From NCBI GenBank assembly GCA_035637535.1, contig DASPWZ010000032.1, positions 16,421 through 80,420 of the forward strand: a DNA stretch of 64,000 nt, given 5' to 3'. Below are positions 1 through 53,602 of the stretch, one piece after another (position 1 is the first letter of the stretch; every line of letters starts with the position of its first letter). The position numbers and the translations under genes were made by a program. A model generated the notes under the pieces. That model had not been told where the DNA came from, searched no databases, and was given only the letters and a program-made list of their open reading frames with translations. This DNA is from Candidatus Dormiibacterota bacterium (GTDB taxonomy: Archaea; Thermoproteota; Bathyarchaeia; 40CM-2-53-6).

Positions 1-351
1 TTGGGATGGTTCATCACATTCGCGGTCGCCGATGTCATGTGCAACTTGTTCTATCATAGAAGTGGAGGGGAACTTAGCCTAATCAATGGAACCGCCTTCG
101 CAATGGTACCACTTCTCCTGGTCCCAGGCCTGATTCTGCTGGTCCAACCTTTTTCCGCGGTGATACAATCCGCGACAGCATTCACGATTCTACTTCAGGT
201 CGGGGTTCAAGTCTGGGTTGTCTGCCTGCTCTCAAGCGCCATTTCAATATCTAAGGGTCTTAAGATGGAGCGGACGGCTCTGATCAGCCTCGCCGTGATG
301 TACCTGAACATCACCGCAGTCATCTTCGCATTATCGCTCGGATTGTTCTAG
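1..351 (+). CDS. hypothetical polytopic membrane protein (ORF open to window edge, possibly 5'-truncated)
   Basis: 116-aa ORF with 3-4 hydrophobic helices (VPLLLVPGLILLV, FTILLQVGVQVWVVCLL, AVMYLNITAVIFALSLGLF). No family recognised. Confidence 0.35.
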   Translation: MGWFITFAVADVMCNLFYHRSGGELSLINGTAFAMVPLLLVPGLILLVQPFSAVIQSATAFTILLQVGVQVWVVCLLSSAISISKGLKMERTALISLAVMYLNITAVIFALSLGLF

Positions 352-494
352 GATCCCAGAACGTTCCAGTTTGGACCCGTAGAACAGGTTCTACTAGTGT
401 AGAAGCTGTAATTTCGCTCCATTTAGAAGAAAAACGCCTAAATCGCGTCTCAAACATATGTCTAGGTTGAAGAAACGGAGATGATTCGAGAACA

Positions 495-1571
495 ATGAAA
501 AGAACCATGACGATGCTGCTCGGAGTCATTGCACTCGCAATCTCAGTACTCGTGGTCCCAGCTGTAGCGGGAGCCCCGCCCACAGGATCGGTCGACTCCT
601 CGAACAGGGTCATCTTCAACAGCGGATCTTTGACGGGAGTGTTCGAGGGAAACGTCCCACACATTACTTTCTATGCGACAAACGAGCTTGGACGAAAAAC
701 CTACCAGCTCAACTTCAGGTCTCTCATAGAATTCAGCACTAGCTCTGGCGTGAGCAGCTACGAGAGCCCTGCGTTGGTTGCAGTGGCCGACTTCGACTCG
801 GCCTCCTGGACCGCCAGCAACTTCTACCCAGTCAAGGACAAAACCACTGGGACTACCATCGGAATGGGTTTCAACTTCACCCTCAACAATCAGATGACCA
901 TCGTTGAAAAGACCCCACCGCCCCAATCCCTCAAATCAGGCGACGTAGTGCTCGTTGTGAAAGCTTACAACAACACTAGGACCATCACTGTCAATGGACA
1001 ATCAGTAACAATCAATACTGCAGAGATCAAGATCGACTTCGTGCTGAAAAACTGGCCCTTCGTATCAACCAGTGACAAACTGGCTTTGCAAGTGAACATG
1101 CACAGCGACTACAACCATTTCGATCTGGATCAGTCTACCGGCACGACGACTGTCGACGCAGCCAATGACGAGGGTGCTACAGTAATGGAGCATCCCTACA
1201 CTGAGACCTCCAAAACGGAACAAGATGTGCGATATGCTTCTGGACCGGCCACGTCAAGCATGAACGTTGGGTTCTTCCACTTCGTCAATACCGCTACTGT
1301 AACATCGGCCAGCGGCACTTCACAATCGGTACCAGTAGTCGCCGCGTACAAGGCGGAAAAGGACGGACCAGAAACATTCCTGAAACTATACCTTGTCTAT
1401 CCCTACTTCGCCAGCGGATCAATCCTAGTTCATGACCCGAGCTTCGGCCTTCAAGGCGGACTGCCAACCCTCTACATCATTGCGGGCGGCGCGGGAGTCG
1501 CAGGACTCGCCGCGGTCCTCGTGATTAGACACCGCCACCTTCAAGTCCAGAGGTTTCCGCAGAGCAATTAG
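495..1571 (+). CDS. secreted, C-terminally membrane-anchored surface protein (hypothetical)
   Basis: 358 aa. N-terminal signal-like helix (MLLGVIALAISVLVVPAVAG), Thr/Ser/Asn-rich beta-type body, C-terminal TM plus basic tail (LYIIAGGAGVAGLAAVLVIRHRH). Confidence 0.6.
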   Translation: MKRTMTMLLGVIALAISVLVVPAVAGAPPTGSVDSSNRVIFNSGSLTGVFEGNVPHITFYATNELGRKTYQLNFRSLIEFSTSSGVSSYESPALVAVADFDSASWTASNFYPVKDKTTGTTIGMGFNFTLNNQMTIVEKTPPPQSLKSGDVVLVVKAYNNTRTITVNGQSVTINTAEIKIDFVLKNWPFVSTSDKLALQVNMHSDYNHFDLDQSTGTTTVDAANDEGATVMEHPYTETSKTEQDVRYASGPATSSMNVGFFHFVNTATVTSASGTSQSVPVVAAYKAEKDGPETFLKLYLVYPYFASGSILVHDPSFGLQGGLPTLYIIAGGAGVAGLAAVLVIRHRHLQVQRFPQSN

Positions 1572-1697
1572 AAAATCTGAAGCGGAGCATGTCTCCGCTC
1601 CCCTTCCTTCCTTTTATCACATTAAGCTTAATCAGGCGAGACTGAGGTTGTGCAAGTTCATTATTTGAAACGCGTAATGTTTGGATAGACTCCTATC

Positions 1698-2642
1698 ATG
1701 AAATACCGGACCCTGGGAAAGACAGATCTCAAAGTCAGCGAAGTAGGATTTGGGGCCTGGGCGATAGGAGGAAACAATTATGGGAACAGCTACGGACCCA
1801 CAGACGACAAAGTCTCGCTCGCTACGGTTGAACGAGCCTTTGAGCTTGGATGCAACTTCTTCGATACGGCTGATGTCTATGGACATGGACATAGCGAAGA
1901 GATTCTCGGCCACGCTCTGAAGGGGCACAGGAACGATGTTATCTTGGCGACCAAAGGGGGGGGCGACTTCTACCATGATCCTCCTCGCATGAACTTCAGC
2001 CCGGACTATCTAGAATTCGCGTCAGCGAAGAGTTGCGAAAGACTGCAGACAGACTGCATCGACCTCTACCAACTGCACAATCCACCTATCCAATTGCTCA
2101 AGAGTGGGAAGATCTTCGAAGATCTAGAGAAACTGAAGGATTCTGGAAGAATCCGACACTACGGCGTCTCCATCCACGATCCGCAGGAGGGACTTCTAGC
2201 TATAAAATATGGACAACCGGCAGCCATCCAAGTTGTCTTCAACGTTCTACGCCAAGAGGCGAAAAACCAGCTCTTCCAAGCAGCTAGAGCACAAAATGTT
2301 GCGATCATCGCGCGAGAACCGCTCTCGAACGGATTCCTCAGTGGCAAGTTCACCATCGACTCGACTTTCCCATCAGGTGATATTCGGAGCAATTTTCCCA
2401 GTAACTATCAAGTGGGCTTGGTAAGAGCGGCTCAACAGCTCAGACTTCTCGAATCGAAGACGAGAACTCTCGCGCAAGCTTCCATCAGATTCGCACTCGA
2501 TCATAAGGACGTGTCAACGGTGATACCTGGCGCGAAGACCCCACAACAGATAGAGGAGAACATGAAAGCGTCGGACCTCCCTCCATTGACAGGCGAAGAG
2601 CTACTGAGAATCAGAATTCTAAGAGAGCAAGGATTCGCATAG
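1698..2642 (+). CDS. aldo/keto reductase family oxidoreductase
   Basis: 314 aa. Has the AKR N-terminus MKYRTLGKTDLKVSEVGFGAWAIGG and the DTADVYGHGHSEEILG block. Confidence 0.85.
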   Translation: MKYRTLGKTDLKVSEVGFGAWAIGGNNYGNSYGPTDDKVSLATVERAFELGCNFFDTADVYGHGHSEEILGHALKGHRNDVILATKGGGDFYHDPPRMNFSPDYLEFASAKSCERLQTDCIDLYQLHNPPIQLLKSGKIFEDLEKLKDSGRIRHYGVSIHDPQEGLLAIKYGQPAAIQVVFNVLRQEAKNQLFQAARAQNVAIIAREPLSNGFLSGKFTIDSTFPSGDIRSNFPSNYQVGLVRAAQQLRLLESKTRTLAQASIRFALDHKDVSTVIPGAKTPQQIEENMKASDLPPLTGEELLRIRILREQGFA

Positions 2643-9625: not shown

Positions 9626-10456
9626 CTACAGATTGTGACTTTCAAGAAAATTCTGAACGAGTTTCTCGACTTCTTGAGGTGAATCCTCAGGAACGAAATG
9701 TCCAGCGTTCACTGTCTCGAGCTTCGATTCCGGAATCATCTTGGAGATTCGTTCAGCATAGGTCGTCCCTGATTTTCCTGTGCCCCAAATTATCGTCGTT
9801 GGAACCTTCAGATGAGTGAGACCCTGCTCGACCTCCTTCAGCGGCTTGAAGCTCGGATGATAATTTGAATCGGGAAACATTCTCGCAAACGCTTGGTAGG
9901 CTTGTTTTGACTCGTCATCAGGAAACGGAGCCCAGTAGGCCTTCATAGTCTCCTCGGATATTTTCTCAGGATGCATGGCAGAATCTTTGATTATCGAAGG
10001 AGTAATTTTCGAAGCAGCAGCAGGTGGAATGCGAAAGTCCGTTGTGAGAAATGTGTTGAGAATGACCAGCCCAGCGATATTCTGAGGGTTGCGCACTGCA
10101 TATTGCAACGCGAAGGGAGCCCCCCAATCATGAACGACCAGAACTATATTCCTGAGTCCCAAGGACTGGATTAGCCCAGAGACTATCCGGGAATGATGGG
10201 GAAAGTCGTGGAGCAGAGGGTTTGGCTTGTCAGACTTACCGAACCCCATCAGGTCCATTGCGATGGCCCGGTGACCGGAAGATATTGCGGGTATGAGACT
10301 TCTCCACATATAGGACCAGGCTGGATTGCCATGGACCATTACGACCGGCCGGCTCCCGTAGCCTTCGTCTACATAGTGAATTCCGAGACCGTCGATTTGG
10401 ACCCAACGCTCCTGAAACGGCCAACCCTCAAAGTACGGCCACCCCTGCCTTATCAT
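9626..10456 (-). CDS. alpha/beta hydrolase, haloalkane dehalogenase-like
   Basis: 276 aa. HGNPAWSYMWRSLIP resembles the HGNPTSSYLWR motif; nucleophile elbow VVHDWG. Confidence 0.8.
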   Translation of the reverse strand: MIRQGWPYFEGWPFQERWVQIDGLGIHYVDEGYGSRPVVMVHGNPAWSYMWRSLIPAISSGHRAIAMDLMGFGKSDKPNPLLHDFPHHSRIVSGLIQSLGLRNIVLVVHDWGAPFALQYAVRNPQNIAGLVILNTFLTTDFRIPPAAASKITPSIIKDSAMHPEKISEETMKAYWAPFPDDESKQAYQAFARMFPDSNYHPSFKPLKEVEQGLTHLKVPTTIIWGTGKSGTTYAERISKMIPESKLETVNAGHFVPEDSPQEVEKLVQNFLESHNL

Positions 10457-10586
10457 CTGGTCAGATGCCCTCGGACACTAACGATGAGTGCAATGGGGTC
10501 CGAATCTCAAACGATATAGGAGTGTTGTAACTGCAAAAAGAAACCATAATATTTCGTTGTTCTACTTCCGTCAATGAGGTTTCCAT

Positions 10587-12182: not shown

Positions 12183-12344
12183 TAAATTCAAGACCCAGGG
12201 TTTCTACCATTGCTCAACGCTAACACTTGATTGAGATTTCTGGTCAATATGGTACTGCAAAATCGGGTTTTTATTTGGGTCTTCTGACTCCGTGGAATTA
12301 TTCGGGTTTCAGGCGATCTCACAAGCTGTGAAAGAACTCGCATC

Positions 12345-13295
12345 GTGTTTCAGGGGAACACCGCTCTGATTGGCTTCGATAAGGCTGGCAAGAGATTCGG
12401 CACGCTTGATGCCGTCAAAGAGTTCTCGATGACTATTCAGGACGAGGAGATTCTTGGACTTTTGGGTCCGAACGGAGCAGGCAAGACGACCCTGATGCTG
12501 ATGATGGGCACAGTCTATCGCCCAACGAGCGGCAAGATTTCTGTGAATGGATTGGATGTCGTTCAGCATCCGAACGATGTGAGAAAGATGATTGGAATTG
12601 CCTTCCAGGATCCTCGAGTCGACGGAATACTGGGAGCGTTTGATGTGCTCAACTGGCATCTGAAGATGACGACGAACCTCGACAAGGTGGAGCGCGAGGA
12701 TCGTGTAGAGAAGGTCCTGCGGGCTGTCGATCTCTGGGATGCGAGGAACAAGAGAACCTGGTTGATGAGTGGTGGAATGCGGAAGAAGGTTGAGGATTGT
12801 AAGGTCCTGGCGCAGCGTCCGAAGATTGCTGTGTTTGACGAGCCGACCGCTTTCCTCGACGTTCCGAGTAGGTTGCTGATGTGGAAGATGATTCGGGAGC
12901 TTAGGGACGAAGGCTCTACTGTAATTGTTGCGACGAACATGATGGACGAAGCTGAGAGACTCTCCGACCGAGTCGCAATCGTAAACCTCGGCAAACTCGT
13001 CGCCATCGACACGCCTGAACAACTGAAAAGCAAGACGAAGGGTGGGGAAGTCCTAGAACTTACGGTAGGAAACGGGCAGGAGTTTCCACGCGAATGCCTT
13101 ACACAGTTTACCGAAATACAAGACGTGAATCAGGAGAATAACAGAGTTATCGTCTACTTGAGCGGGGGTAGGCTGCTCCTACCGAAGATTGTCGAGACAC
13201 TGACCAACCGGGGAGTGAAGATCGACAGCGTTCATCTAAAGGAGGTCACCTTGGAAGATGTCTTTCTCAACTACACAGGGCACAGACTCGAGTGA
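12345..13295 (+). CDS. ABC transporter ATP-binding protein (ABC-2 exporter type)
   Basis: 316 aa. Walker A GPNGAGKTT, signature MSGGMRKK, Walker B IAVFDEPT. Confidence 0.85.
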   Translation: MFQGNTALIGFDKAGKRFGTLDAVKEFSMTIQDEEILGLLGPNGAGKTTLMLMMGTVYRPTSGKISVNGLDVVQHPNDVRKMIGIAFQDPRVDGILGAFDVLNWHLKMTTNLDKVEREDRVEKVLRAVDLWDARNKRTWLMSGGMRKKVEDCKVLAQRPKIAVFDEPTAFLDVPSRLLMWKMIRELRDEGSTVIVATNMMDEAERLSDRVAIVNLGKLVAIDTPEQLKSKTKGGEVLELTVGNGQEFPRECLTQFTEIQDVNQENNRVIVYLSGGRLLLPKIVETLTNRGVKIDSVHLKEVTLEDVFLNYTGHRLE

Positions 13296-40407: not shown

Positions 40408-40453
40408 ATGGTGCGGGAGGTGGGATTTGAACCCACGAACCCCTACGGGACAG
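40408..40453 (-). repeat. att direct repeat, distal copy
   Basis: atggtgcgggaggtgggatttgaacccacgaacccctacgggacag, identical to 53293-53338. Confidence 0.9.
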
Positions 40454-42599: not shown

Positions 42600-43142
42600 C
42601 TATTCATCCAGTTTTCTCAATATGTGTCTGGCGCTTTCTAGCAATCGTAGACTCTTCAGACCTGCAAACACCACCTTACCACTCGCAAAAACCAAGACCG
42701 ACGCTCCCTCAAGTTCTTCCGCATAATATATTGCTCCTGAGAATTGCTCTGGCTCATAGAGAACGTTTGGTCTGGTGGCAAGCCGCTCAATGTCTATGGG
42801 CTTTCCAAGTCCGCCTGTTGCCACAATATTTCGGAGCTTTACGACTAGCTTTGTTGGTTTAATCAGCCTGAGTTTCGCAACCTTTCTTGCTGCATATTCA
42901 AGGTCAAGCCTAGCATCTTCTAGACCCTTCGCACCCACACAAATCATCCTTCCAGTGGAAAAAATGGAGACTTTGCCCTTCATTTCCGAATCTTTGAGAT
43001 ACGCACATCTGTACACTGTCGGGTCATAACGGAAACCTTCGATTCCAACCAGCATCTGTAAGTTGACGAGTTGATTGAGGTCTGCTGTTGCAACTAGGTT
43101 CACAATGTTGAGCTTTGGAAGCAGTTCTTGCAGGGCTTGCAA
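42600..43142 (-). CDS. tbp: TATA-box binding protein, element-encoded paralog
   Basis: 180 aa with two TBP repeats (NIVNLVATADL...KVSIFSTGRMICVGAK; LRNIVATGGL...SVLVFASGKVVFAGLK). Confidence 0.9.
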   Translation of the reverse strand: MQALQELLPKLNIVNLVATADLNQLVNLQMLVGIEGFRYDPTVYRCAYLKDSEMKGKVSIFSTGRMICVGAKGLEDARLDLEYAARKVAKLRLIKPTKLVVKLRNIVATGGLGKPIDIERLATRPNVLYEPEQFSGAIYYAEELEGASVLVFASGKVVFAGLKSLRLLESARHILRKLDE

Positions 43143-45541
43143 TCTCCGAAATGGTCTGGGATATGCTTCAACCTACATCTCAGCGGACGACTAAAGGTCT
43201 TATTCCCTTCAAAACAGCGGATGGCGGACCATTGGCTCCATCCAGAGACTTTGAGAACCAAGTTGCAGCCTCACTAGCTGGCATTGTGAAGCAACTGGCC
43301 ACGGGACCAACTCCCCCTTCGGGGGAAGGCAAGGAAAGAGTCCTGCGAACCCTCATCCGAGACAGACTTCTGATCGACACCCTTGGCTGGCCAAGAGAAA
43401 AGCTCCTCTTCGGAGAAATTTACGACATCTACGGGTTTGACCTTCTCAACTATCTTGTAACTTACGTAGAGACAAAGACACCCAATCTTCCAAGACTCAA
43501 CGCCGACGCGATTAACCAATTCGAAAGAAATCTGAAGAGACTTGGGACCTGCGATTTTGGATTCATCACAAACGGCCATCAACTGATTGGGTATGATTGC
43601 ACAACTGGACCTTCTGGAATCAAAGTTTCCCAGAATGAATCAATCGATCTGGAAGACGTAGCTACACAATACCAATCCGGAAAAATCAACGAAAGAACAA
43701 TCGAGAAGCTCTTAACCATCTTTCGACCTCTGAAAGCGAGCCGTTACTTAACAGCGGGACCTTCCTCTTATGAAGTGGAGTTCGGGAAAGTTCACCCAAA
43801 GCCTCAGCGTTCTGACGAAATTCGGATTCTTAGCACCCAAATGAAGAGTGCACTGGACGAGCTAACGGACATGCTTGTGGATGTACTCAGAACATTCCTG
43901 GGGACAAGCATTCCGATCGGCTCATCAAACGGTACCGGATTTACCATATGGGCCCCACTCGATGACTGGAGCACATACTCGGGAAGAGTCCCACCTACCA
44001 CTATCGGCAATTACCTTGATGACAAAGTTAGGAAGCTAAGCGAACTTCGCAAGTCCAGTAAACTCAACAATGCTACATTGAAAAGAGAAGCAAGGCTAGC
44101 AAAGAGGAATCTAGGAATCGAGGCCAAAGAGGAATTGCTGAGCGAATTAATCGCCAGCTTCGTAACGGATCAAGATGGATTCGATACTCATCTAAGAGAT
44201 GAGTTGCTTGAGTTAATCGATGCAGACCATGTCCAAGTTTTCGCGAGGCAAACCGCTCACGTCATCCTCAGTCGGATCTTGCTGTATCGAGTCGCCGAAG
44301 ACAAAGGCCTTGTCGCAAGAAAACTGTCGGGAGCGAGCGTAGACCGACGTCTAAAGGACGTCGGAGGCGGACTACTCGATTGGTATCAGAAGGCGACGGC
44401 CTTCAGAAACATGGTTGATGAGGCTGAAAAGTTGATGGCTGATGTATTCTATTCTCACCTCTACCTCCATGGACTATTTGATTGGTGGGTAGTTCCGTCT
44501 GAAACAAAGGAAGAATATGATGAGAATGAAGAGGCCATCTATAGACGGGCCGAAAGATCAATTGACATTTCCCTGGAAAAATGCATCCGAATTCTCAACC
44601 GATTCGATCTCTCTGAAATTGAAAGAGATATTTGGAAAGATGTGTACCAAGAATATCTTCCCCCGAAAGAGAGAGCCAGACTTGGAGGGTTTTACACCCC
44701 GGATGAAATTGTCAACCTCATTCTCGATCGAGTCGGCTACAACGAAGCCGCGCCACTTTGCAAACTCAAGGTACTTGATCCTGCTTGTGGCAGCGGTACC
44801 TTCTTAGTTGAAGCGGCGAAGAGGCTCAGAACCCACCTAGAAACCAAGAAGATTTGCCATTCAGACCTATCGGAAATCAAGGACAATCGAGAATTGGCAT
44901 GGCGGGTTTTGAACAAAATCGTCGCGGGTTTGTTCGGGCTAGACATCCATCCATTTGCTTGTTTCTTGACCGAAATGAATGTCCTCTTTTACGTCGTAGA
45001 CCTGTTGTTAGTCGCGAAGAAACTTGAGCCGAGCCGCAAAGTCCGAGAACTGAGCATTGGTTGCGACGATTCGCTTCGGCCTCCTGAACAGGAAGTACAA
45101 CTTCAGCTGTCCCAGTTCACACAAACGAATTCTCGTGCCGAGAGCCTCGTGAAAGATCGTGAGAAAGCGCGCCGAATCAAGGGTACGGCTTTCGACATTG
45201 TGGTAGGGAATCCGCCTTGGAGTGGTGTGTTGCGAGGTGAGCTAAGCCCGCTATTTGATGAGGCAACTAAGGCTCTCTACAAACATTACCCGAGTGCGAC
45301 GGACAAGTACGACATATACGTCCTGTTTCTTGAGAGAGGCATTCGGTGGCTACCTGCTAAGGGACATCTTGGCTTTATCACGCAAAACCGATACTTGAGA
45401 AGAAGATATGGTCGCGGAATCCGGCGGTTCATAAGAGAGACCTGTTCTATGATAACACTCATCGATCTCTGGCCGGCGGGCCCTGTGGTATTTCCAGGAC
45501 GGACCAATTACCCATGCATAACGGTATTAGAGCGAATGTAA
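43115..45541 (+). CDS. type IIG/IIL (MmeI-like) restriction-modification enzyme, nuclease plus gamma-N6A methyltransferase part
   Basis: 808 aa. N-terminal D-x9-E-x-K (GFDLLNYLVTYVETK), motif I LDPACGSGTFLVEA, motif IV VVGNPPWSG. The true start is probably 43151 or 43163. Confidence 0.85.
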   Translation: MEAVLAGLAISEMVWDMLQPTSQRTTKGLIPFKTADGGPLAPSRDFENQVAASLAGIVKQLATGPTPPSGEGKERVLRTLIRDRLLIDTLGWPREKLLFGEIYDIYGFDLLNYLVTYVETKTPNLPRLNADAINQFERNLKRLGTCDFGFITNGHQLIGYDCTTGPSGIKVSQNESIDLEDVATQYQSGKINERTIEKLLTIFRPLKASRYLTAGPSSYEVEFGKVHPKPQRSDEIRILSTQMKSALDELTDMLVDVLRTFLGTSIPIGSSNGTGFTIWAPLDDWSTYSGRVPPTTIGNYLDDKVRKLSELRKSSKLNNATLKREARLAKRNLGIEAKEELLSELIASFVTDQDGFDTHLRDELLELIDADHVQVFARQTAHVILSRILLYRVAEDKGLVARKLSGASVDRRLKDVGGGLLDWYQKATAFRNMVDEAEKLMADVFYSHLYLHGLFDWWVVPSETKEEYDENEEAIYRRAERSIDISLEKCIRILNRFDLSEIERDIWKDVYQEYLPPKERARLGGFYTPDEIVNLILDRVGYNEAAPLCKLKVLDPACGSGTFLVEAAKRLRTHLETKKICHSDLSEIKDNRELAWRVLNKIVAGLFGLDIHPFACFLTEMNVLFYVVDLLLVAKKLEPSRKVRELSIGCDDSLRPPEQEVQLQLSQFTQTNSRAESLVKDREKARRIKGTAFDIVVGNPPWSGVLRGELSPLFDEATKALYKHYPSATDKYDIYVLFLERGIRWLPAKGHLGFITQNRYLRRRYGRGIRRFIRETCSMITLIDLWPAGPVVFPGRTNYPCITVLERM

Positions 45542-45542
45542 T

Positions 45543-46664
45543 ATGGCCGGCAATTTTCCTTTTGTCGAGGTAAAACAAAAAGCCCGTAAACTCGACTTAC
45601 AAGCGATTGTCAAAGAAATTGAGATGGGTCTCGCAACCGCTTCCTCCGGAGAGATGGTTGACAACGAATACATCAGAGCTTACTCCCTAGACCAAACCGT
45701 AATTCAGACCAACTCCGGCGAACCATGGAATCTCGCAGCCCCGGAAGTGTCCACGTTGAAGAAACGCATCCTATCGGTAAGCAACTGCGACCGATTGGAT
45801 TCAGTGTTTGAAATGACTCAAGGGGTGACTCCTGGAGGAGGGTGCCTCGACATCTTTCTGCTCGATTCTGCCGAATCTGTCGAAGCCGCACTCATGTCGC
45901 CGGCAGTAGAGGCTGAGGATATTGCAGATTGGAGAATCGGACTTCCTAGGAAGTGGTTGCTGTATCCTTATGCCGCTGACGGCAGGCTGATTAATTTGGG
46001 TAAGTTGGATTATGACTTGGAACAAGCAGATGCCCAAAAAAGAATAGATGCACTAATTGCTACAGGCTCAATAAAATATCCAAGGGCCTCGCGTTACCTC
46101 GTTAGGTCTTACGACAGGCTAGTTGCCCGTGAGGCTGAAAAGAAAACGTGGGACGACTACGGCAAAGAATGGTATGAGTATCACCGGCCGCGAGATCCAG
46201 CTGTAATGAAATCCTCACCAAAGATTCTCACGAGAAGGATGACTCATGACATGGAATTTGCCCTCGACGACCGTGGCTCCGTGCCCACGGATGGCTGTAT
46301 CGCTCTCACATTCAAAAAGAACAATAGGTGGCTAAAGCAAGCTCTTGAGCAAGGTCTGACAAATAACGAAGCGTTTCTTTTTTGTGTTGCAGTGTTGAAT
46401 TCATCTCTCATGAAACTCGTATTGAAGTCGAGTTCTGACGCTTGGCAGGGGAACTTTTTGCAAGTGCGGGAGGACAGTATTGGTCTATTCCCGATCAAGA
46501 TACTTGCAAATGGAGTAATGAAAAATGTCCGTCACATAGTATCGCTCACGAACGGTGCCCTGGCAGATTCTGAGAAACGCAAAGACGTGGACAAGGCAGT
46601 CATTCAATTATACGGCTTAAAATCCGATAGCGACTCGATCGTCTCTCACTCCGTCAACTCATGA
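45543..46664 (+). CDS. TaqI/Eco57I-type C-terminal target-recognition domain protein (separate ORF)
   Basis: 373 aa. Starts 1 nt after the upstream TAA. GKEWYEYHRPRD and ILTRRMTHDMEFALDD resemble the TRD of fused type IIG enzymes. Confidence 0.7.
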   Translation: MAGNFPFVEVKQKARKLDLQAIVKEIEMGLATASSGEMVDNEYIRAYSLDQTVIQTNSGEPWNLAAPEVSTLKKRILSVSNCDRLDSVFEMTQGVTPGGGCLDIFLLDSAESVEAALMSPAVEAEDIADWRIGLPRKWLLYPYAADGRLINLGKLDYDLEQADAQKRIDALIATGSIKYPRASRYLVRSYDRLVAREAEKKTWDDYGKEWYEYHRPRDPAVMKSSPKILTRRMTHDMEFALDDRGSVPTDGCIALTFKKNNRWLKQALEQGLTNNEAFLFCVAVLNSSLMKLVLKSSSDAWQGNFLQVREDSIGLFPIKILANGVMKNVRHIVSLTNGALADSEKRKDVDKAVIQLYGLKSDSDSIVSHSVNS

Positions 46665-46687: not shown

Positions 46688-47161
46688 TTACTTGTCCGGA
46701 ACGGATCCACGGGCTTTACCTGCCCGTTTGAGGCGACGGTACTCGGTGAGTCCATAAAACCAGTCGTTGATGATTTGGCTTTCATTTTTCGAAACGACGT
46801 TTCTTAGAACTTCGTCAGATGAGGTCTTGGCAATCTTCGCCAACGATTCGAGTCGATGCAAAGGAACACCTCTTGTTCCCTTCCACATCTCGCGAATTGA
46901 TCCGTTTAGTCCATCGCCAGATAAGTAACCCATAGCCAATGCTATTGAGTGCAGACTTCCCTCAGCTTCATAGGCTCTTGAGAAAAGGCTGTTTCGAAAC
47001 TCGGACCGGAGAAAGACTACTTGGTTTTTCTTCATCGTCGAAGGCATTGTTTCCCCGATCGACGGCAAGTCGCAGGACACTTGAGTGACGTTTAGGAACC
47101 AAGGGCCAATTATGTCTTCGCAAGAAAGGTAGCCGATGCAACGCCCGAATGACAACCTCAA
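46688..47161 (-). CDS. hypothetical protein, possible HTH regulator (likely start 47047)
   Basis: 157-aa ORF. The internal MPSTMKKNQ start gives 119 aa. Has a helical segment, SLHSIALAMGYLS...GVPLHRLESLAKIAK. Confidence 0.4.
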   Translation of the reverse strand: MRLSFGRCIGYLSCEDIIGPWFLNVTQVSCDLPSIGETMPSTMKKNQVVFLRSEFRNSLFSRAYEAEGSLHSIALAMGYLSGDGLNGSIREMWKGTRGVPLHRLESLAKIAKTSSDEVLRNVVSKNESQIINDWFYGLTEYRRLKRAGKARGSVPDK

Positions 47162-47301
47162 TCCATTCGTCTAAAGTTAGCATTAGACTGGAACCTTAAG
47201 AGTGAATGGACGGGACTAAGCAATCCGATGCAGTCCAACAATAGAGAAGACTTTGCGATGATAAGGTAGGTTTTGACTGGTGACGGTTATAGCTGGCTTG
47301 A

Positions 47302-47634
47302 CTACTGTCTTCGGACTTCCGCTATGATCTCTTTCAGGCTCCCTAGCGGAATGGGTGGGCTCGCCTCAATCTTCTTGATGAGTGTATCAAGAAATTCCAG
47401 TCTACGCTCAAACTTCGCGTTCTGACCTTTGAGCGTTATCCAGACGACCACCTCGGCTGCAACGCCGATAGGCGAGAATTCAATTAATTCGAGTTGTTTG
47501 GCGAGAATCGCTGCAACGAGAACGGCAAAGCCAGCTACAAGAGTTGTCACGAGAAAGATAGCCATATTCAGGTATGCGCTCGTGATGTAATTAGAGACAA
47601 GCTCAATTCTCATGCGTTCGCCTTCTTTGCTCAT
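47302..47634 (-). CDS. hypothetical two-TM membrane protein
   Basis: 110 aa, with two hydrophobic helices in the N-terminal half and a soluble helical C-terminal half. Confidence 0.4.
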   Translation of the reverse strand: MSKEGERMRIELVSNYITSAYLNMAIFLVTTLVAGFAVLVAAILAKQLELIEFSPIGVAAEVVVWITLKGQNAKFERRLEFLDTLIKKIEASPPIPLGSLKEIIAEVRRQ

Positions 47635-47659
47635 GAATTATCAACTAAGGGCATCCAGC

Positions 47660-47818
47660 TTAGAGTTTTTCCACCACGATATTCGCGCATTCCTTACACA
47701 TGAAGCACCTTCCGCCCCAACGGAATGTAATCTCATGTGCCGTGACCTTGCCGCATGTCCAGCACCATACTGATGAAAAGCGGGCGAAGAAGTCGGGATT
47801 CTTCTCTAAGGATGGCAT
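47660..47818 (-). CDS. small zinc-ribbon protein (52 aa, not in the ORF track)
   Basis: MPSLEKNPDFFARFSSVWCWTCGKVTAHEITFRWGGRCFMCKECANIVVEKL, giving CxxC...CxxC. Confidence 0.35.
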   Translation of the reverse strand: MPSLEKNPDFFARFSSVWCWTCGKVTAHEITFRWGGRCFMCKECANIVVEKL

Positions 47819-47877
47819 GAAAGCCTAAGCTCTGTTAGAGACTGTTAAGTAAGAGATGGGTCCGAAACTCTTCACCG

Positions 47878-48942
47878 TTGGAACAAGGTTCTAATCTGGA
47901 ATCGAGGACATTATTTCAGAATTCGAAAGAGGGTGATGGAAAGTTGCCCAATGATTCGGTTAAAGTGTACTTGCCCGAGGAAGCACTCCAAGGTGAAGAG
48001 ATACCGTCGTTCGCGTTATGGCATGGAGCTACCTTCGAGGGGATACAGGTACGCATTCCTCGCGGGTTGAAAGTGTCGGAAGTGTACAATGTGGCAAACG
48101 ATGATTGGACTCTCTCTGAAACCGAATTGTCGGTCAAACAGGTGGAAGTAAACGGTTACTTGGGGCTCGTAATCACCTCTGAACAAATGGAAGAGACATC
48201 GAAAGAGGTCGAACTCCATTGGGATTTCTTTCATAAGGATGGAAAGTTTTCGGAGTCGAAGCGAATTCATGTCTTCCGGCCGCTGATTGAAGTTGAAGTG
48301 CCATCCGAGGTTCGGCTTGAGAAATCTCCGAAGGTTGTCGCCAACCCGTTGCGAATAGAAAACAAAGGGCTGGGAACTGTTATCATCGGAGTAAGAGCAT
48401 TAGATGACAGCAAGGCGACGTTGGAAGAACCAGCAGTAGTATCAGATTTCGTAAAGTCGTTCAACGAAGATGTCAAAGCCGGTTTCGGTGAGATGAAGAC
48501 TCGATTTCCTGACCTTCACCGTCTCATTGGCGAAGTCGCCCGCATCTTCAGCGACCCTCCGAATCTGTCAGAAAAGGCAGGCGTGCAAAGGCTTCAACGA
48601 ATTGGAGAGGAAGTGAAGCAGACGAACCAAGAGTACACGGACTTCGGGAAATCGATTGGAGAGGTTCTCGGTAGCGCCCTGCTGGCGAACCTTCAGAAAT
48701 TCAACATATTCCAGCAACTCGCTGAGTACATTCACTCAGTTCAAGGTAGAAAGGTCCTCGTGAGAGATCCATTGAACACTGTACATGTTGGACCTGGAAA
48801 ATCCAAGTTGCATTTTAGAGTCGAGTACACTGACCTTGCGTACGGGTACTATCCGCACGTCGAAATCAAGACCATGATTCAATCAGATGAAGACAAGATT
48901 TTCCCCCTTTACAAGCTTTTCAGGTGGAGTGGGACGAGATGA
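47878..48942 (+). CDS. unknown protein A of a coupled pair (no recognisable domain)
   Basis: 354 aa with a TTG start. Soluble, with no catalytic or NTP-binding motifs seen. Confidence 0.6.
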   Translation: MEQGSNLESRTLFQNSKEGDGKLPNDSVKVYLPEEALQGEEIPSFALWHGATFEGIQVRIPRGLKVSEVYNVANDDWTLSETELSVKQVEVNGYLGLVITSEQMEETSKEVELHWDFFHKDGKFSESKRIHVFRPLIEVEVPSEVRLEKSPKVVANPLRIENKGLGTVIIGVRALDDSKATLEEPAVVSDFVKSFNEDVKAGFGEMKTRFPDLHRLIGEVARIFSDPPNLSEKAGVQRLQRIGEEVKQTNQEYTDFGKSIGEVLGSALLANLQKFNIFQQLAEYIHSVQGRKVLVRDPLNTVHVGPGKSKLHFRVEYTDLAYGYYPHVEIKTMIQSDEDKIFPLYKLFRWSGTR

Positions 48943-49901
48943 CCGTTCCAATCGTCGCCCAAGAAGGGAAGGCAGCGCTCAAGATAGTAGAGAAGATCGG
49001 TAAGATCCTAGACACTCTAAAACGGTCAGTAACAAAGGAATCAGAGGTCCTCTCCTTAAGGTTGCCCGACCACACTGGAGAGTATTCCGTAGTGCTGAAA
49101 GTTAAGTCGGGCTATTACGGAGGAAAAGTTGCCTTTTCCATCCCTAACATAATCAGACTGCAAGCCGTCTGTTTACCCGCTTTTCGTCGTGAGGAGGCTG
49201 CTGTCTCTCGGGAAGGCGACACCTTCCAATTTGACCCGGGCAAACTTTCCGCCGGCGCGGAAACTGTATTGTTGAAGTTTCTCTTCCAGATAGAAGAAAG
49301 AACTGTTCTTGAGAATCTTGTGAAGCTAAACTCCCAACTTGACCCTTTGGGGTCGGACTCTTCTGCCGAAGACAAATACTGGCTCACTGCTCAAATCAAG
49401 TTTCCAGCCTCTCTTCAGAAGCTATACAGCAGTTTGGAAGTGCTCGGGGTCGATTTTCGAGTAGATGTTGGTGTCCATCAGCAGATAAAGACCGTTCCTA
49501 GCGAAATTAGGGGAATTATCGAAAGGACAGCCGACTTCAGTGGCACTGCGGACCGAGAGAAACTCCTTAGACTCGTCGGGGAACAACGCAGGGCGGCGAA
49601 GTTTGCATCAAGATTCAGAGAAGACTTTCGCGAACTTGCACTGTTATTCATGCCTACTCGCTTTAGCCGCTACATAGTAGTCCAACAACCTTTCAGGTAT
49701 ACAGAATGTGAGCCCGGACTCGAACTATTCGAGTCTTCATTCGCCCCGTTGCCGAAGTTCATGACCGTTACCTCTCGAACTGACCTCAGCCTAGAGGAAC
49801 CTGCTAAGGAGGGGGTTCTGGTCTACAAGAAGAAGGAGGTAAAAGACGAAATTCAACGCATATTTCCCGCGTCAAAGGACTACAAGTCTTCCTCAAGCTG
49901 A
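48924..49901 (+). CDS. unknown protein B of a coupled pair (no recognisable domain)
   Basis: 325 aa. Its start overlaps the end of A by 19 nt. Soluble, no motifs seen. Confidence 0.6.
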   Translation: MEWDEMTVPIVAQEGKAALKIVEKIGKILDTLKRSVTKESEVLSLRLPDHTGEYSVVLKVKSGYYGGKVAFSIPNIIRLQAVCLPAFRREEAAVSREGDTFQFDPGKLSAGAETVLLKFLFQIEERTVLENLVKLNSQLDPLGSDSSAEDKYWLTAQIKFPASLQKLYSSLEVLGVDFRVDVGVHQQIKTVPSEIRGIIERTADFSGTADREKLLRLVGEQRRAAKFASRFREDFRELALLFMPTRFSRYIVVQQPFRYTECEPGLELFESSFAPLPKFMTVTSRTDLSLEEPAKEGVLVYKKKEVKDEIQRIFPASKDYKSSSS

Positions 49902-50064
49902 ATGAGTGCTGTCCCAGCTGTAAGTTGCTTCGGGGGCGTCACCTGCCCCGTTTGTTCAGCACATACCGCTACTTCCCGGGCCTCAAGGAACGGAGTCCGA
50001 AGGGCGGGGCTTTCGACTGAGATTGTTAAGTAAGAGATGAGACCACGCACTCTGGGGTCCAAGA

Positions 50065-51015
50065 TTGGTACTGCCAGATTACCAAACCCTAATGCTTCCG
50101 TTGATGCAGACAATCGGAGACAACCAAGTGCACGATCTGCACGACATTATCGAGTCTCTCGCCAAACAATTCAAGCTGAGGGACCCGGATAGGGTCGAAA
50201 TGCTTCCAAGCGGTAAACAGAGAACGTTCGACAATAGGGTTGGTTGGGCAAGGACTTACCTCAAGAAAGCAGGGCTTCTTGAGACTCCCAGCATGGGAAA
50301 GCTCAAGATAACCGCCCGTGGATTAGATATGTTGAAGAACAATCCGCCCAATCTTGACCGAAAGTTTCTCATGCAGTTTCCCGAGTTTGTCGAGTTCCAG
50401 AAGGTTCAACAAAAAACACTCTTGAAAAAGATTGAAACCGACGAGGACAAGAACCTGTTTAAGAGATTTCAAGCTATCTCGGATTTTGCAGCGGCCTCTA
50501 CGCCTACTGAATTGTTAGAAGCAAGTTATCAGGGTCTACGGGCCGCGTTGGCAGAAGAACTCTTAGACCGTGTTAAGAAATGCTCGCCACGGTTTTTCGA
50601 GGATCTTGTTCTGGACCTGCTTGTGCAGATGGGCTATGGTGGGTCTCGGAAAGACGCAGAGCGTGTTGGACGAAGTGGTGACGGTGGAATAGACGGCACC
50701 ATTAACGAAGATAAGTTAGGGCTGGATGTTGTCTATGTTCAGGCAAAGCGGTGGGATAAGGGAACGGTGGCGAGGAAGGAAATACAGGCATTTGTTGGCA
50801 GTCTTGAACCGAAGAAAGCTAAGAAAGGGGTCTTCATTACAACTTCCCAGTTCTCCGAGGACGCCAGAGACTACGTGAAGGGGACTGAGAAGAGAATAGT
50901 GCTCATAGACGGGGAAGAACTCGCCCAATTGATGATTGACCACGGGATTGGGGTCACCTTAGAGAACCGCTATGATATCAAGAAGGTGGACGTGGACTAC
51001 TTCAGCGAGGGATAA
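50065..51015 (+). CDS. mrr: Mrr-family type IV restriction endonuclease
   Basis: 316 aa. Mrr_N-like winged helix (LPDYQTLMLPLMQ) and an Mrr catalytic core (GDGGIDG...DVVYVQAKRW). Confidence 0.88.
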   Translation: MVLPDYQTLMLPLMQTIGDNQVHDLHDIIESLAKQFKLRDPDRVEMLPSGKQRTFDNRVGWARTYLKKAGLLETPSMGKLKITARGLDMLKNNPPNLDRKFLMQFPEFVEFQKVQQKTLLKKIETDEDKNLFKRFQAISDFAAASTPTELLEASYQGLRAALAEELLDRVKKCSPRFFEDLVLDLLVQMGYGGSRKDAERVGRSGDGGIDGTINEDKLGLDVVYVQAKRWDKGTVARKEIQAFVGSLEPKKAKKGVFITTSQFSEDARDYVKGTEKRIVLIDGEELAQLMIDHGIGVTLENRYDIKKVDVDYFSEG

Positions 51016-51289: not shown

Positions 51290-52417
51290 TCAAATGATTC
51301 CAATCATTAGCAGGAACAACACGGTAACTAGGAGTGCAGCGTAGACTGCGGCTACGAGTCTGTTCTGTAGAATTGTTCTCGCATGCTTGGTTGGAGTCTT
51401 GATTTGGACTGTTGGCACGAGGCTTAGTCCTTTGGATCTGGGAACGAACATCATTCCAGAACCATTCCTAGACGCCCATCCAGTCCATCCAAGCTCGCTA
51501 CGGTTCACGAGTGCCCGCTCTTCTTTCTCGCGCAATTGGTTGTAGACCGAATCGCCCAGCATGCTTCGAACAGTTCTCGCATCGAATGTTCCCGGCGTAC
51601 CCGTAGACCGAACTAACAGAAGGTCCGCATCAGCCCTCAGGTCGATTGGCGTCGAGTAGAATCTATGAACTGCGCTAAGAACTATCACTAATCCCTCGGT
51701 CATGCCAGCACAGCGCTTCAACGCACCGCGGATATCATAGAGTGCCCCAAGCAGTATTCCACGAGTCCTGCGGTCAACGTTGTCGAGCGCCTTGGTCATG
51801 TCGTCTAAGAATAGCAACACAGCCTTGTAGGGACGGGCTGGAAGATTGTCCAACAGGGCTACCAAGTCGCGACTTGAGCGGACCGCATAGACTGACCCAG
51901 CGCCATATCTTGAAACAAGATATTCGCAGATAGAGGACCCAATCGAGGTCTTCCCAGTGTTTGGTTTGCCGAATGCTACGATATTCAAGTGGTGTATCGC
52001 ATTGTCGTCTATGCCTTGGCTTCTCGGCAAGGGTTCTGGGATTAGCTTGTCAAGTATGCTCGCCAAAGTGGCCTCTGGATTTGGTTGGAGAATGGCAAGT
52101 GCTGCTCGTTTCAATGAACGCTCATGCAAGTGCGTTGAGCCGGAGGCTTTTTGTTTGGATTGGCCGCTAAGGTCTTTGCCGGGTCTACCGATCGCCCAGT
52201 GACCGAAGCCCAAGAATTCTAAGGCTCGATCAATCCAGCCGCCTTCGAAAAGCTCGTACGCCTCTGGCTTGTTGCCATCCCGCAAGCCACTTTGGAACCG
52301 TGATTGCTGGAACATGCTTTCAGCTTGGGTCAGAACGGCTTGCGCGCGCTCGTTGCTGAACTGGGCTCTGAGTCCGCCGAAAATCTTGGAGTTCAGCTCG
52401 ACTAGGGACGCCATCAC
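51290..52417 (-). CDS. element P-loop ATPase with C-terminal TM anchor
   Basis: 375 aa. Walker A FGKPNTGKTS, Walker B VLLFLDDMT, C-terminal LVAAVYAALLVTVLFLLMIGII. 4-nt overlap with the integrase stop. Confidence 0.75.
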   Translation of the reverse strand: MMASLVELNSKIFGGLRAQFSNERAQAVLTQAESMFQQSRFQSGLRDGNKPEAYELFEGGWIDRALEFLGFGHWAIGRPGKDLSGQSKQKASGSTHLHERSLKRAALAILQPNPEATLASILDKLIPEPLPRSQGIDDNAIHHLNIVAFGKPNTGKTSIGSSICEYLVSRYGAGSVYAVRSSRDLVALLDNLPARPYKAVLLFLDDMTKALDNVDRRTRGILLGALYDIRGALKRCAGMTEGLVIVLSAVHRFYSTPIDLRADADLLLVRSTGTPGTFDARTVRSMLGDSVYNQLREKEERALVNRSELGWTGWASRNGSGMMFVPRSKGLSLVPTVQIKTPTKHARTILQNRLVAAVYAALLVTVLFLLMIGII

Positions 52418-53268
52418 TTACGCCTCCTAAAGACTTGGACACCGTCCTCTAGTTTGCAGACAAATTCGAACCCGGTTTCGACCAGAGCTGTGACCTCTGA
52501 GAGAGTTCTAGCCGCTTTGCAATGGAAGGCGTCATCTTCCGTAGTTTGGAGTTGGATGTAGCGTAGCGTGTTCTGGATTGATTTGTGTCCTAGGAGTCTA
52601 GAGACGTGGACTATGTCCTTTGTTCGAGCATACTCCACCGTTCCTCTCCAATGGCGAAGAGTATGAAAGTGGATTGACTGTATCCTAGGGTTTCCTAGTT
52701 TGGAGGCTATTCTCTTTCTCTGCTTCTGGAACAGCCTGCCGAAGTGGTTAAGCGTTCCATCTCCCCAAACCTTCTGACTATTCCTAGGCAGCGTGCCCAG
52801 TCGCTCGGTCAATCTCAGACTTAGCTTGAGCAGTCTAGCGTTGGAGTTCTTCTCTGGTGTTACTCTTACAGTTCTCTGCTCAAGGTCTAGGTCCGTCCAT
52901 CGGACGCTCCAAGCCTCACCAGCCCTAGCCCCCGTATCTTTCAAGAAGAGCAGGAAAGAGCCTACCCTTCGTGAACATCCTCCAATCAGTTGATCTATCT
53001 CTGCTTCAGTTGGTAGGAAAGGTACCTTGTCTATTCTGCGATATCGTGGCTTGGTGAACGAAACGCCTCGAAACTTGTAGAAACTGTATAGAACGTTAGA
53101 AGCAATCTCCTTGGTTCCGAGAGACCAATCCAGTTTCGAGAGATAGCCCTTGACAGCTTCACCGTCGGCAAGGTTGCTGTGCTGGGACAGTCGTCGTAGG
53201 ATTCTGATACTTCTATCGACGCTGGATTCTCGGTATCCTTCTTTCTGTAAGTGGAAGCCGTATTCCAC
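52414..53268 (-). CDS. int: tyrosine recombinase/integrase
   Basis: 284 aa. ARAGEAWSVRW (Arg), HTLRHWRGT (HxxR), LLGHKSIQNTLRYI (His...Tyr). Adjacent to the tRNA 3' end. Confidence 0.9.
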   Translation of the reverse strand: MEYGFHLQKEGYRESSVDRSIRILRRLSQHSNLADGEAVKGYLSKLDWSLGTKEIASNVLYSFYKFRGVSFTKPRYRRIDKVPFLPTEAEIDQLIGGCSRRVGSFLLFLKDTGARAGEAWSVRWTDLDLEQRTVRVTPEKNSNARLLKLSLRLTERLGTLPRNSQKVWGDGTLNHFGRLFQKQRKRIASKLGNPRIQSIHFHTLRHWRGTVEYARTKDIVHVSRLLGHKSIQNTLRYIQLQTTEDDAFHCKAARTLSEVTALVETGFEFVCKLEDGVQVFRRRK

Positions 53269-53292: not shown

Positions 53293-53338
53293 ATGGTGCG
53301 GGAGGTGGGATTTGAACCCACGAACCCCTACGGGACAG
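53293..53338 (-). repeat. att direct repeat, tRNA-proximal copy
   Basis: Identical to 40408-40453. Confidence 0.9.
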
Positions 53339-53434
53339 GCGCCTCAGGCCTGCGCGTCCAAGACCCTACGGTCGACGGGTCTCTTTGACCTGGCTTGGCA
53401 ACACGAGCCGCCCACATACAAGGCGGACTCCCGC
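53294..53434 (-). tRNA. tRNA-Leu(GAG), 141 nt, with two non-canonical insertions
   Basis: Minus strand reads GCGGGAG...CAGGC-CTGAGGC-GCCTG-TCCCGTAGGGGTTC-GTGGGTTCAAATCCCAC-CTCCCGC-A-CCA. Hairpin inserts follow the acceptor strand and sit in the D loop. A second GCGGGAG lies at 53449-53455. Confidence 0.8.
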
Positions 53435-53602
53435 AAACACCAGGCCCGCTCCCGCAAAGACCCAAACCTAAACGACGCCCCTAATTGGCTTTCGCCAATC
53501 AGACAAAATCATCAGAATCCTGATAATGTTTAATTCAAGCCCGCCCCGGAACCCAACACAACCGAAACCCTGCTTGTCCCATACAACAGGAAACATGTTC
53601 CC

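Follow-up and report, generated by a model that had tools for sequence, protein, structure and literature searches.

A 64-kb stretch of DNA (64,000 nucleotides (nt) of contig DASPWZ010000032.1, assembly GCA_035637535.1; hereafter, the window) carries two overlapping genes, A and B, which form a conserved two-gene unit wherever they are present, always adjacent and always in the same order. The pair is a self-contained cassette that moves horizontally and occurs in unrelated contexts across several archaeal lineages. Its genomic context suggests that the products of A and B form a heteromer with a role in the conflict between hosts and mobile elements, most likely in defence, a reading to which a probability of about 0.45 is given. 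The most likely extents of the two genes are as follows, with lengths in amino acids (aa):

47944..48942, plus strand: gene A, 332 aa, TTG start
48939..49901, plus strand: gene B, 320 aa, ATG start

A preliminary description of this DNA had listed two open reading frames (ORFs) on the same strand, of 354 and 325 aa. Both are present on the plus strand, as the longest ORFs of A (47878-48942, TTG) and B (48924-49901, GTG), although for both genes these starts are probably too far upstream. The start of A is placed at the TTG at 47944 because a sister element (locus L061, described below) has an in-frame TGA just 5´ of the conserved TTG that matches this position, because the NCBI annotation for the protein cluster of A is 332 aa long, and because residues 1-22 of the 354-aa version were modelled by AlphaFold with a predicted local distance difference test score (pLDDT) below 50. 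An exact look-up of the 354-aa version found no deposited record, in agreement with the shorter annotated start. The start of B is placed at the ATG at 48939, since homologs share it and the 320 aa encoded from there match the deposited protein HYU55832.1 exactly. With these starts, the 19-nt overlap claimed earlier shrinks to 4 nt (ATGA, in which the ATG of B and the TGA of A overlap), and the co-translation proposed on its basis holds, as A and B form a translationally coupled unit. Family members of ~380-397 aa were considered as possible carriers of an extra N-terminal domain; their extensions are of low complexity and look like mis-called starts. The ratios of nonsynonymous to synonymous substitution (dN/dS) against L061, 0.084 for A and 0.026 for B, point to strong purifying selection on both. 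The existence of homologs and these low ratios indicate that A and B are real genes.

Word-index searches detected 10 relatives of A and 14 of B. With a profile of A, 356 relatives (counted as clusters of 50% identity) were detected among 1.84 billion representatives, 253 of them at E <1e-10, and every cluster member bearing a name in the sources is called 'hypothetical protein'. One search pattern, applied to 185,579 species-representative genomes, gave only five hits, in metagenome-assembled genomes (MAGs) labelled as Bathyarchaeia (two), Halobacteria, Methanococcoides and one unclassified archaeon. Besides these, 38 metagenomic loci were retrieved. The loci were found with an 18-sequence alignment, as a 58-sequence alignment (A4) was too divergent for this purpose. 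No match to A was obtained by tblastn among GenBank phage and virus records or PLSDB plasmids, and no relative was found in IMG/VR when scanned with four peptide patterns.

The preliminary description had suggested asking whether homologs occur as a conserved pair. When this check was run, B was found directly after A, on the same strand, in 29/29 non-redundant loci holding both genes; the other loci with A have either a contig end shortly after it or only a fragment of it. The junction is tight in most of the 29 loci, with a short overlap, abutting codons or a start within ~12 nt. Furthermore, the pairwise identities of A and those of B are correlated (r = 0.945), showing that the two proteins have diverged together. 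Adjacency, order, tight junctions and co-divergence are those of a functional operon, with a heteromer of A and B as its putative product.

One MAG holds two A-B copies in two different elements, that of the window and a sister. The sister (L061 7091-18451, also represented by L022 and L063) lies between a V4R-domain gene and enolase. Between the two elements, the A-B block is 92% identical and sharply bounded (47857-49935), whereas the other shared blocks are 71-87% identical. The pair has been kept while the flanking restriction-modification (R-M) and Mrr genes have been swapped, and the Mrr enzymes found downstream of B in the two elements are unrelated beyond their fold. The gene order in L022/L061 is TIR, A-B, a DUF8426 + Mrr_cat protein, a split type IIG methyltransferase, a DpnII/MboI restriction endonuclease, a P-loop protein and an integrase, so that the sister element can be described as a compact carrier of defence genes. 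In an all-against-all comparison of neighbours, only A, B, integrases, methyltransferases and DUF4145 proteins recur among the loci, and therefore A-B moves as a cassette.

The analysis of both proteins by sequence gave no assignment to any family. A and B matched no family in Pfam-A, NCBIfam or PHROGs, even at E<=1, and none of the profile hidden Markov models (HMMs) of PADLOC-DB v2.0.0, a database from 2023 without later systems, at the same threshold. No signal peptide or transmembrane-like segment was found in either protein, and the earlier statement that both are devoid of recognizable domains is borne out by these searches. Profile searches against the PDB returned weak matches of the helical part to designed helical bundles, which were taken as compositional.

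AlphaFold2 models of usable quality were obtained, with a pLDDT of 81.3 and a predicted template-modelling score (pTM) of 0.60 for A, and a pLDDT of 80.6 and a pTM of 0.71 for B. In each of them, beta strands account for ~150 residues, helices for 60-100 and a C-terminal beta region for ~50. The predicted order in A is a beta-sandwich region resembling an immunoglobulin (Ig)-like domain, a helical bundle and the C-terminal beta region, while B is predicted to start with an N-terminal helix, followed by a beta-sandwich, a helical region and the C-terminal beta region. Despite this similar layout of secondary structure, no sequence relationship between A and B was detectable (hhalign probability 0.1), and their paralogy was rejected. 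Foldseek searches of A against the PDB returned generic beta-sandwich and Ig-like structures with a TM-score of ~0.2, including a fusexin domain, pilins and complement MG domains, the top match being the Ig-like part of an archaeal fusexin. The matches of B, also at ~0.2, were the beta domain of M1 aminopeptidase, a subunit of the oligosaccharyltransferase (OST) complex and the MHD domain of the COPI delta-subunit. Searching B against BFVD gave nothing significant, only generic beta-sandwich matches, again at ~0.2. The PDB matches of the two proteins and the BFVD matches of B thus included neither a capsid nor another viral structural fold.

When 26 diverse sequences were compared, the positions conserved in at least 85% of them were mostly G, P, W and L, and included no catalytic arrangement of D, E, H or K. 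No nuclease of any kind, PD-(D/E)xK, HNH and HEPN included, appears among the top 50 Foldseek matches of A or B. A and B carry no catalytic signature and, on the evidence of their models, are predicted to be non-enzymatic beta-sandwich/helical proteins. Two candidate motifs in B were rejected: a Walker-like 'GYYGGK', which lies inside the beta-sandwich and whose G and K are not conserved in at least 85% of the 26 sequences, and a stretch D-x-x-x-D...Q-x-x-K resembling PD-ExK, for which there is no nuclease among the top Foldseek matches. The two families differ in charge. The A of the window is acidic (isoelectric point, pI, ~5.5; family median 5.3), and the B family is basic (median pI ~8.7).

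In the window, A-B is cargo of a cryptic element integrated in a tRNA gene, as indicated by an integrase and terminal repeats. A 46-nt exact direct repeat occurs at 40408-40453 and 53293-53338, the copies being 12,885 bp apart, which delimits an element of 12.9 kb. Read on the opposite strand, the repeat corresponds to the T arm, acceptor stem and CCA of a tRNA, and so to the 3´ part of a tRNA encoded on the minus strand. The element contains a paralog of the TATA-binding protein (TBP), a split type IIG R-M enzyme, three small ORFs, A-B, Mrr, a weakly matching P-loop protein and a tyrosine integrase. Features of this carrier are:

40408..40453, no strand: left attachment-site (att) copy, a 46-nt exact repeat of the tRNA 3´ part, with a weak tRNA-like Rfam match
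42600-43142, minus strand: TBP homolog, 180 aa, full length (JGI assigns PF00352 to the identical gene in L060)
51290..52417, minus strand: P-loop/AAA-like protein, 375 aa, with a hydrophobic C-terminus, overlapping the integrase gene by 4 nt
52414..53268, minus strand: tyrosine recombinase (integrase; Pfam Phage_integrase, E 1.7e-16), adjoining the right repeat copy
53294..53455, minus strand: target tRNA gene with intervening sequence(s), containing the right att copy (53293-53338), detected by relaxed ARAGORN

Standard ARAGORN and Rfam at gathering thresholds found no tRNA anywhere in the window. Relaxed ARAGORN recovered the acceptor stem and T arm of the gene at 53294-53455; 86 nt of this span are intervening sequence, which seems to be non-canonical. 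The preliminary description had named the carrier a tRNA-Leu integrated element; the tRNA-borne repeats and the integrase stand, and the identity, Leu(GAG), was read by eye from the anticodon loop CTGAGGC and a long variable arm. The intron-rich tRNAs of this genome may be systematically missed by standard tools. The TBP homolog lies inside the integrated element, which therefore carries its own TBP paralog. The 375-aa protein has only weak AAA and RuvB_N matches; it is kept together with the integrase in the sister element (87% nucleotide identity), so it is an element backbone gene, likely serving the replication or maintenance of this element family. Element-bearing contigs of 13.6 kb were considered as episomal forms and rejected, since L060 represents the same chromosomal insertion and its contig ends near the att sites. 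Proteins identical to those of the window are deposited under a 'Candidatus Dormibacteraeota bacterium' MAG (locus tags VEL71_); the TBP homolog and an L15-SecY-adenylate kinase cluster in the window make the contig look archaeal and either mis-binned or mislabelled.

The pair is bordered in the window by two restriction systems and a repeated 26-nt box:

43115..46664, plus strand: type IIG R-M enzyme, with ORF1 (43115-45541) a methyltransferase (Eco57I/N6_Mtase) and ORF2 (45543-46664) a TaqI_C specificity domain
46688..47818, minus strand: three small ORFs between the R-M enzyme and A, of 157 aa, 110 aa (containing a transmembrane segment) and 52 aa (a CxxC...CxxC zinc ribbon)
47838..47863, plus strand: 26-nt box GAGACTGTTAAGTAAGAGATGGGTCC, upstream of A
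50019..50044, plus strand: second copy of the box, 23/26 identical, 21 nt upstream of the Mrr start codon
50065..51015, plus strand: Mrr-type type IV restriction endonuclease (Mrr_N and Mrr_cat, Pfam E 8e-39 and 3e-30; PADLOC mREase_IV, E 2e-91)

The R-M enzyme, described earlier as an MmeI-like enzyme at 43115-46664, is indeed a type IIG enzyme, but it consists of two ORFs, split at 45539-45543 by a TAA, one base and an ATG. The end of ORF1 (YPCITVLERM) and the start of ORF2 (FPFVEVKQK) both resemble one segment of the intact 909-aa homolog of L036, which suggests either a swap of the specificity domain with a duplicated junction or a pseudogene. The R-M gene is called in pieces in L060 and L022 too. 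The Mrr enzyme at 50065-51015 is as previously described and forms a separate transcription unit, 163 nt 3´ of B. The three small ORFs have no significant families in Pfam, PHROGs or NCBIfam. The 52-aa zinc-ribbon ORF accompanies A-B in L027, where the homology block spans 47659-49893 and is 88% identical.

The 16-nt core of the box, TGTTAAGTAAGAGATG, is present at two places in the window and no others, against an expectation of 0, and a variant of the box is found upstream of A in L027. The box is inferred to be promoter-like and shared, so that A-B and Mrr would be regulated together. Alternatively, it may be a cassette junction rather than a promoter or operator common to both. Homology with L061 begins at 47857, at the right edge of the box (47838-47863), which is the left edge of the A-B block.

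The neighbourhoods of A-B were scanned with Pfam and PADLOC for 140 proteins (>=140 aa, within 5 kb, from 29 loci). The commonest Pfam families were Phage_integrase (8 of the 140), N6_Mtase (5), Eco57I (4), Mrr_cat (4), TaqI_C (3), DUF4145 (3), SMC_N (3), ResIII (2), AAA_21 (2) and TIR_2 (2), with PADLOC giving R-M matches in agreement with Pfam. As to the proximity of homologs to defence genes, a check set out in the preliminary description, the neighbourhoods are rich in R-M, Mrr-type, HEPN, TIR, OLD and NERD proteins, as well as in integrases. Examples include Mrr_cat and REase-ARP in L042, an OLD-like nuclease in L038 and the intact type IIG enzyme of L036. In L057, a truncated A (165 aa, at 9989-10486, without B) follows a complete type I R-M operon (HsdR, HsdS and HsdM) and precedes a 1224-aa gene resembling superfamily 1 (SF1) helicases; it is probably what remains of a cassette that decayed within a defence island. 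Immediately beside A-B in L001, L007 and L008 is a zinc-ribbon + DUF4145 HEPN protein, whose gene overlaps the start of A in L007. Other neighbours of ~200-240 aa, searched for DUF4145 by local HMM and jackhmmer, added nothing to the three known DUF4145 groups. L021 (Methanococcoides) has A-B directly after tRNA-Thr, at the edge of a ~10-kb repeat-bounded island, with a NERD nuclease 1.5 kb downstream.

Two further observations concern these loci. Just 3´ of A-B in L021, at 12230-12390, a T-rich unit of 15 nt (TTTGTGGCTTATT-like) is repeated ~8 times in tandem. L008 encodes a protein-primed family B DNA polymerase (162-2447, minus strand) and an integrase beside the zinc-ribbon HEPN gene and A-B, and this element may be casposon- or virus-like.

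Of the candidate undescribed defence module put forward in the preliminary description, the coupled pair without known domains, its mobile carriage and its defence-rich surroundings stand, and the defence role is a matter of guilt by association. In the favoured reading, A and B would assemble as a cytoplasmic, non-enzymatic heteromer, to which the complementary charges of the two proteins lend support. This complex would have its place in the conflict between host and mobile elements, where it would most likely protect against viruses or plasmids. A component of the invader would be bound by the beta-sandwich domains, after which the complex would act alone or through a neighbouring stand-alone nuclease. 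In the window this partner would be the Mrr enzyme, whose gene bears the same upstream box as A-B.

Several findings weigh against or limit this proposal. The structural likeness of A and B to other proteins is generic, and therefore the fold offers no mechanistic lead; nor was an effector-like domain found in either protein by library and model searches. R-M, Mrr, HEPN, OLD, TIR or NERD genes lie within 5 kb in ~10/29 loci by raw count, and the position and strand of the nearby nuclease differ among loci. RAZR, Mrr, OLD and R-M systems are autonomous, so their co-presence may only mean shared islands. Finally, housekeeping genes are the only neighbours of A-B in roughly one in four informative loci. 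In L020, A-B stands alone between a DeoC aldolase and a thioredoxin-reductase-like gene, with an Obg-like GTPase near; the neighbours are threonyl-tRNA synthetase and PfkB in L049, an aminotransferase and MatE in L017, and a glycosyltransferase in L037.

A more specific form of the defence reading, which is held to be doubtful, is that A-B is a non-enzymatic archaeal immune sensor, a beta-sandwich/helical heteromer recognising some part of the invader and licensing interchangeable adjacent nucleases (Mrr-type, HEPN/RAZR-like or NERD). If true, this would make A-B the core of a core-plus-effector system whose folds are new to defence systems.

It is also unlikely, though worth weighing, that A-B serves the mobile elements themselves, as addiction (toxin-antitoxin-like), superinfection-exclusion or anti-defence cargo. 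Such a role would fit the predominance of integrases, the commonest neighbour family, the presence of the pair in several unrelated integrase-bearing elements and its retention in both sister elements while the flanks were exchanged. The tight coupling of genes for an acidic and a basic product also resembles many toxin-antitoxin pairs. However, both proteins exceed 300 aa and lack a toxin-like enzymatic domain or a DNA-binding antitoxin domain, there are solitary chromosomal copies without mobile-element genes near (L020 and L049), and tblastn of A found no homologs in sequenced plasmids or viruses.

An ordinary cellular role outside any conflict, as a structural or adaptor complex sometimes captured by elements and islands, is likewise given a low probability. 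The housekeeping surroundings of L020, L049, L017 and L037, the apparently non-enzymatic nature of the proteins and the strong purifying selection are what such a role would lead one to expect. Nevertheless, the pair was hit only five times by the one search pattern run on species-representative genomes, and it has no conserved neighbourhood besides mobile-element and defence genes. The cassette-like transfer between elements at 92% identity, the truncated remnant beside type I R-M genes in L057 and the presence of two copies in one genome also speak against it.

The alternative raised in the preliminary description, that A and B are structural components, of the virion or otherwise, from a small archaeal provirus so far unrecognised, is very improbable. 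In its favour, Ig-like beta-sandwich domains are common in virion-associated proteins and the top match of A is a fusexin part, an integrase, a P-loop protein and small transmembrane proteins are encoded by the 12.9-kb element, and L008 has a protein-primed polymerase. Against it, the searches of A and B in the PDB and of B in BFVD revealed no capsid or structural fold, the four peptide patterns drew no relatives from IMG/VR, GenBank phage and virus records gave none either, neither protein has a signal peptide or transmembrane segment, and A-B occurs alone between housekeeping genes (L020) and in elements with nothing else in common.

To our knowledge, few archaeal defence systems have been characterised, most candidate systems coming from bacterial genomes. 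Should A-B prove protective, it would add a system without a recognisable enzymatic part and provide a handle on the control of stand-alone nucleases such as Mrr. Should it not, it would still be an unannotated archaeal protein pair that deserves a family entry. Since relatives are present in Methanococcoides and Halobacteria MAGs, whose cultivated kin are genetically tractable, the idea is testable.

Among known systems, Lamassu offers a comparison for a core with a nuclease beside it. Lamassu comprises an LmuB/LmuC core, in which LmuB is an SMC-like ATPase, and a swappable effector, LmuA, of Mrr, Cap4 or another type. A-B is similarly a two-gene core found beside differing stand-alone nucleases (two unrelated Mrr_cat proteins, DUF4145 HEPN and NERD), on mobile elements and in defence islands, and the Mrr of the window has a weak PADLOC match to LmuA (E 1.4e-4). 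However, neither A nor B has an SMC/ATPase domain, any other known one or a PADLOC match, the nuclease near A-B is not always present and varies in position and strand, and a functional link between the two is putative. With no ATPase or SMC domain in profiles or models, A-B is not assigned to Lamassu.

The combination of a zinc ribbon or zinc finger with a DUF4145 HEPN RNase is the architecture of RAZR / PD-T7-4 (PMC3710099, PMC13017515). A protein of this architecture is the immediate neighbour of A-B in L001, L007 and L008, although RAZR is a single-gene system that is absent from the window and unrelated to A and B, and the association may be one of island co-residence only. As for type II toxin-antitoxin and addiction cassettes, A-B shares with them translational coupling, opposite charges, mobility and a location on integrative elements. 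It differs from them in that each protein exceeds 300 aa and has no toxin fold, antitoxin DNA-binding domain or match to a known family.

The carrier has its own counterpart in the cryptic integrated elements of Thaumarchaeota, which are <20 kb long, bounded by tRNA repeats, and encode a XerC/D-like integrase, R-M cargo and mostly unannotated genes (Krupovic et al. 2019, PMC6563490). The 12.9-kb element of the window fits the description of that class; the likeness concerns the carrier and not A-B, which is also found outside such elements. The A and B families themselves are unannotated and match no known system, and as an uncharacterised cassette in defence and mobile islands the pair is a familiar kind of object.

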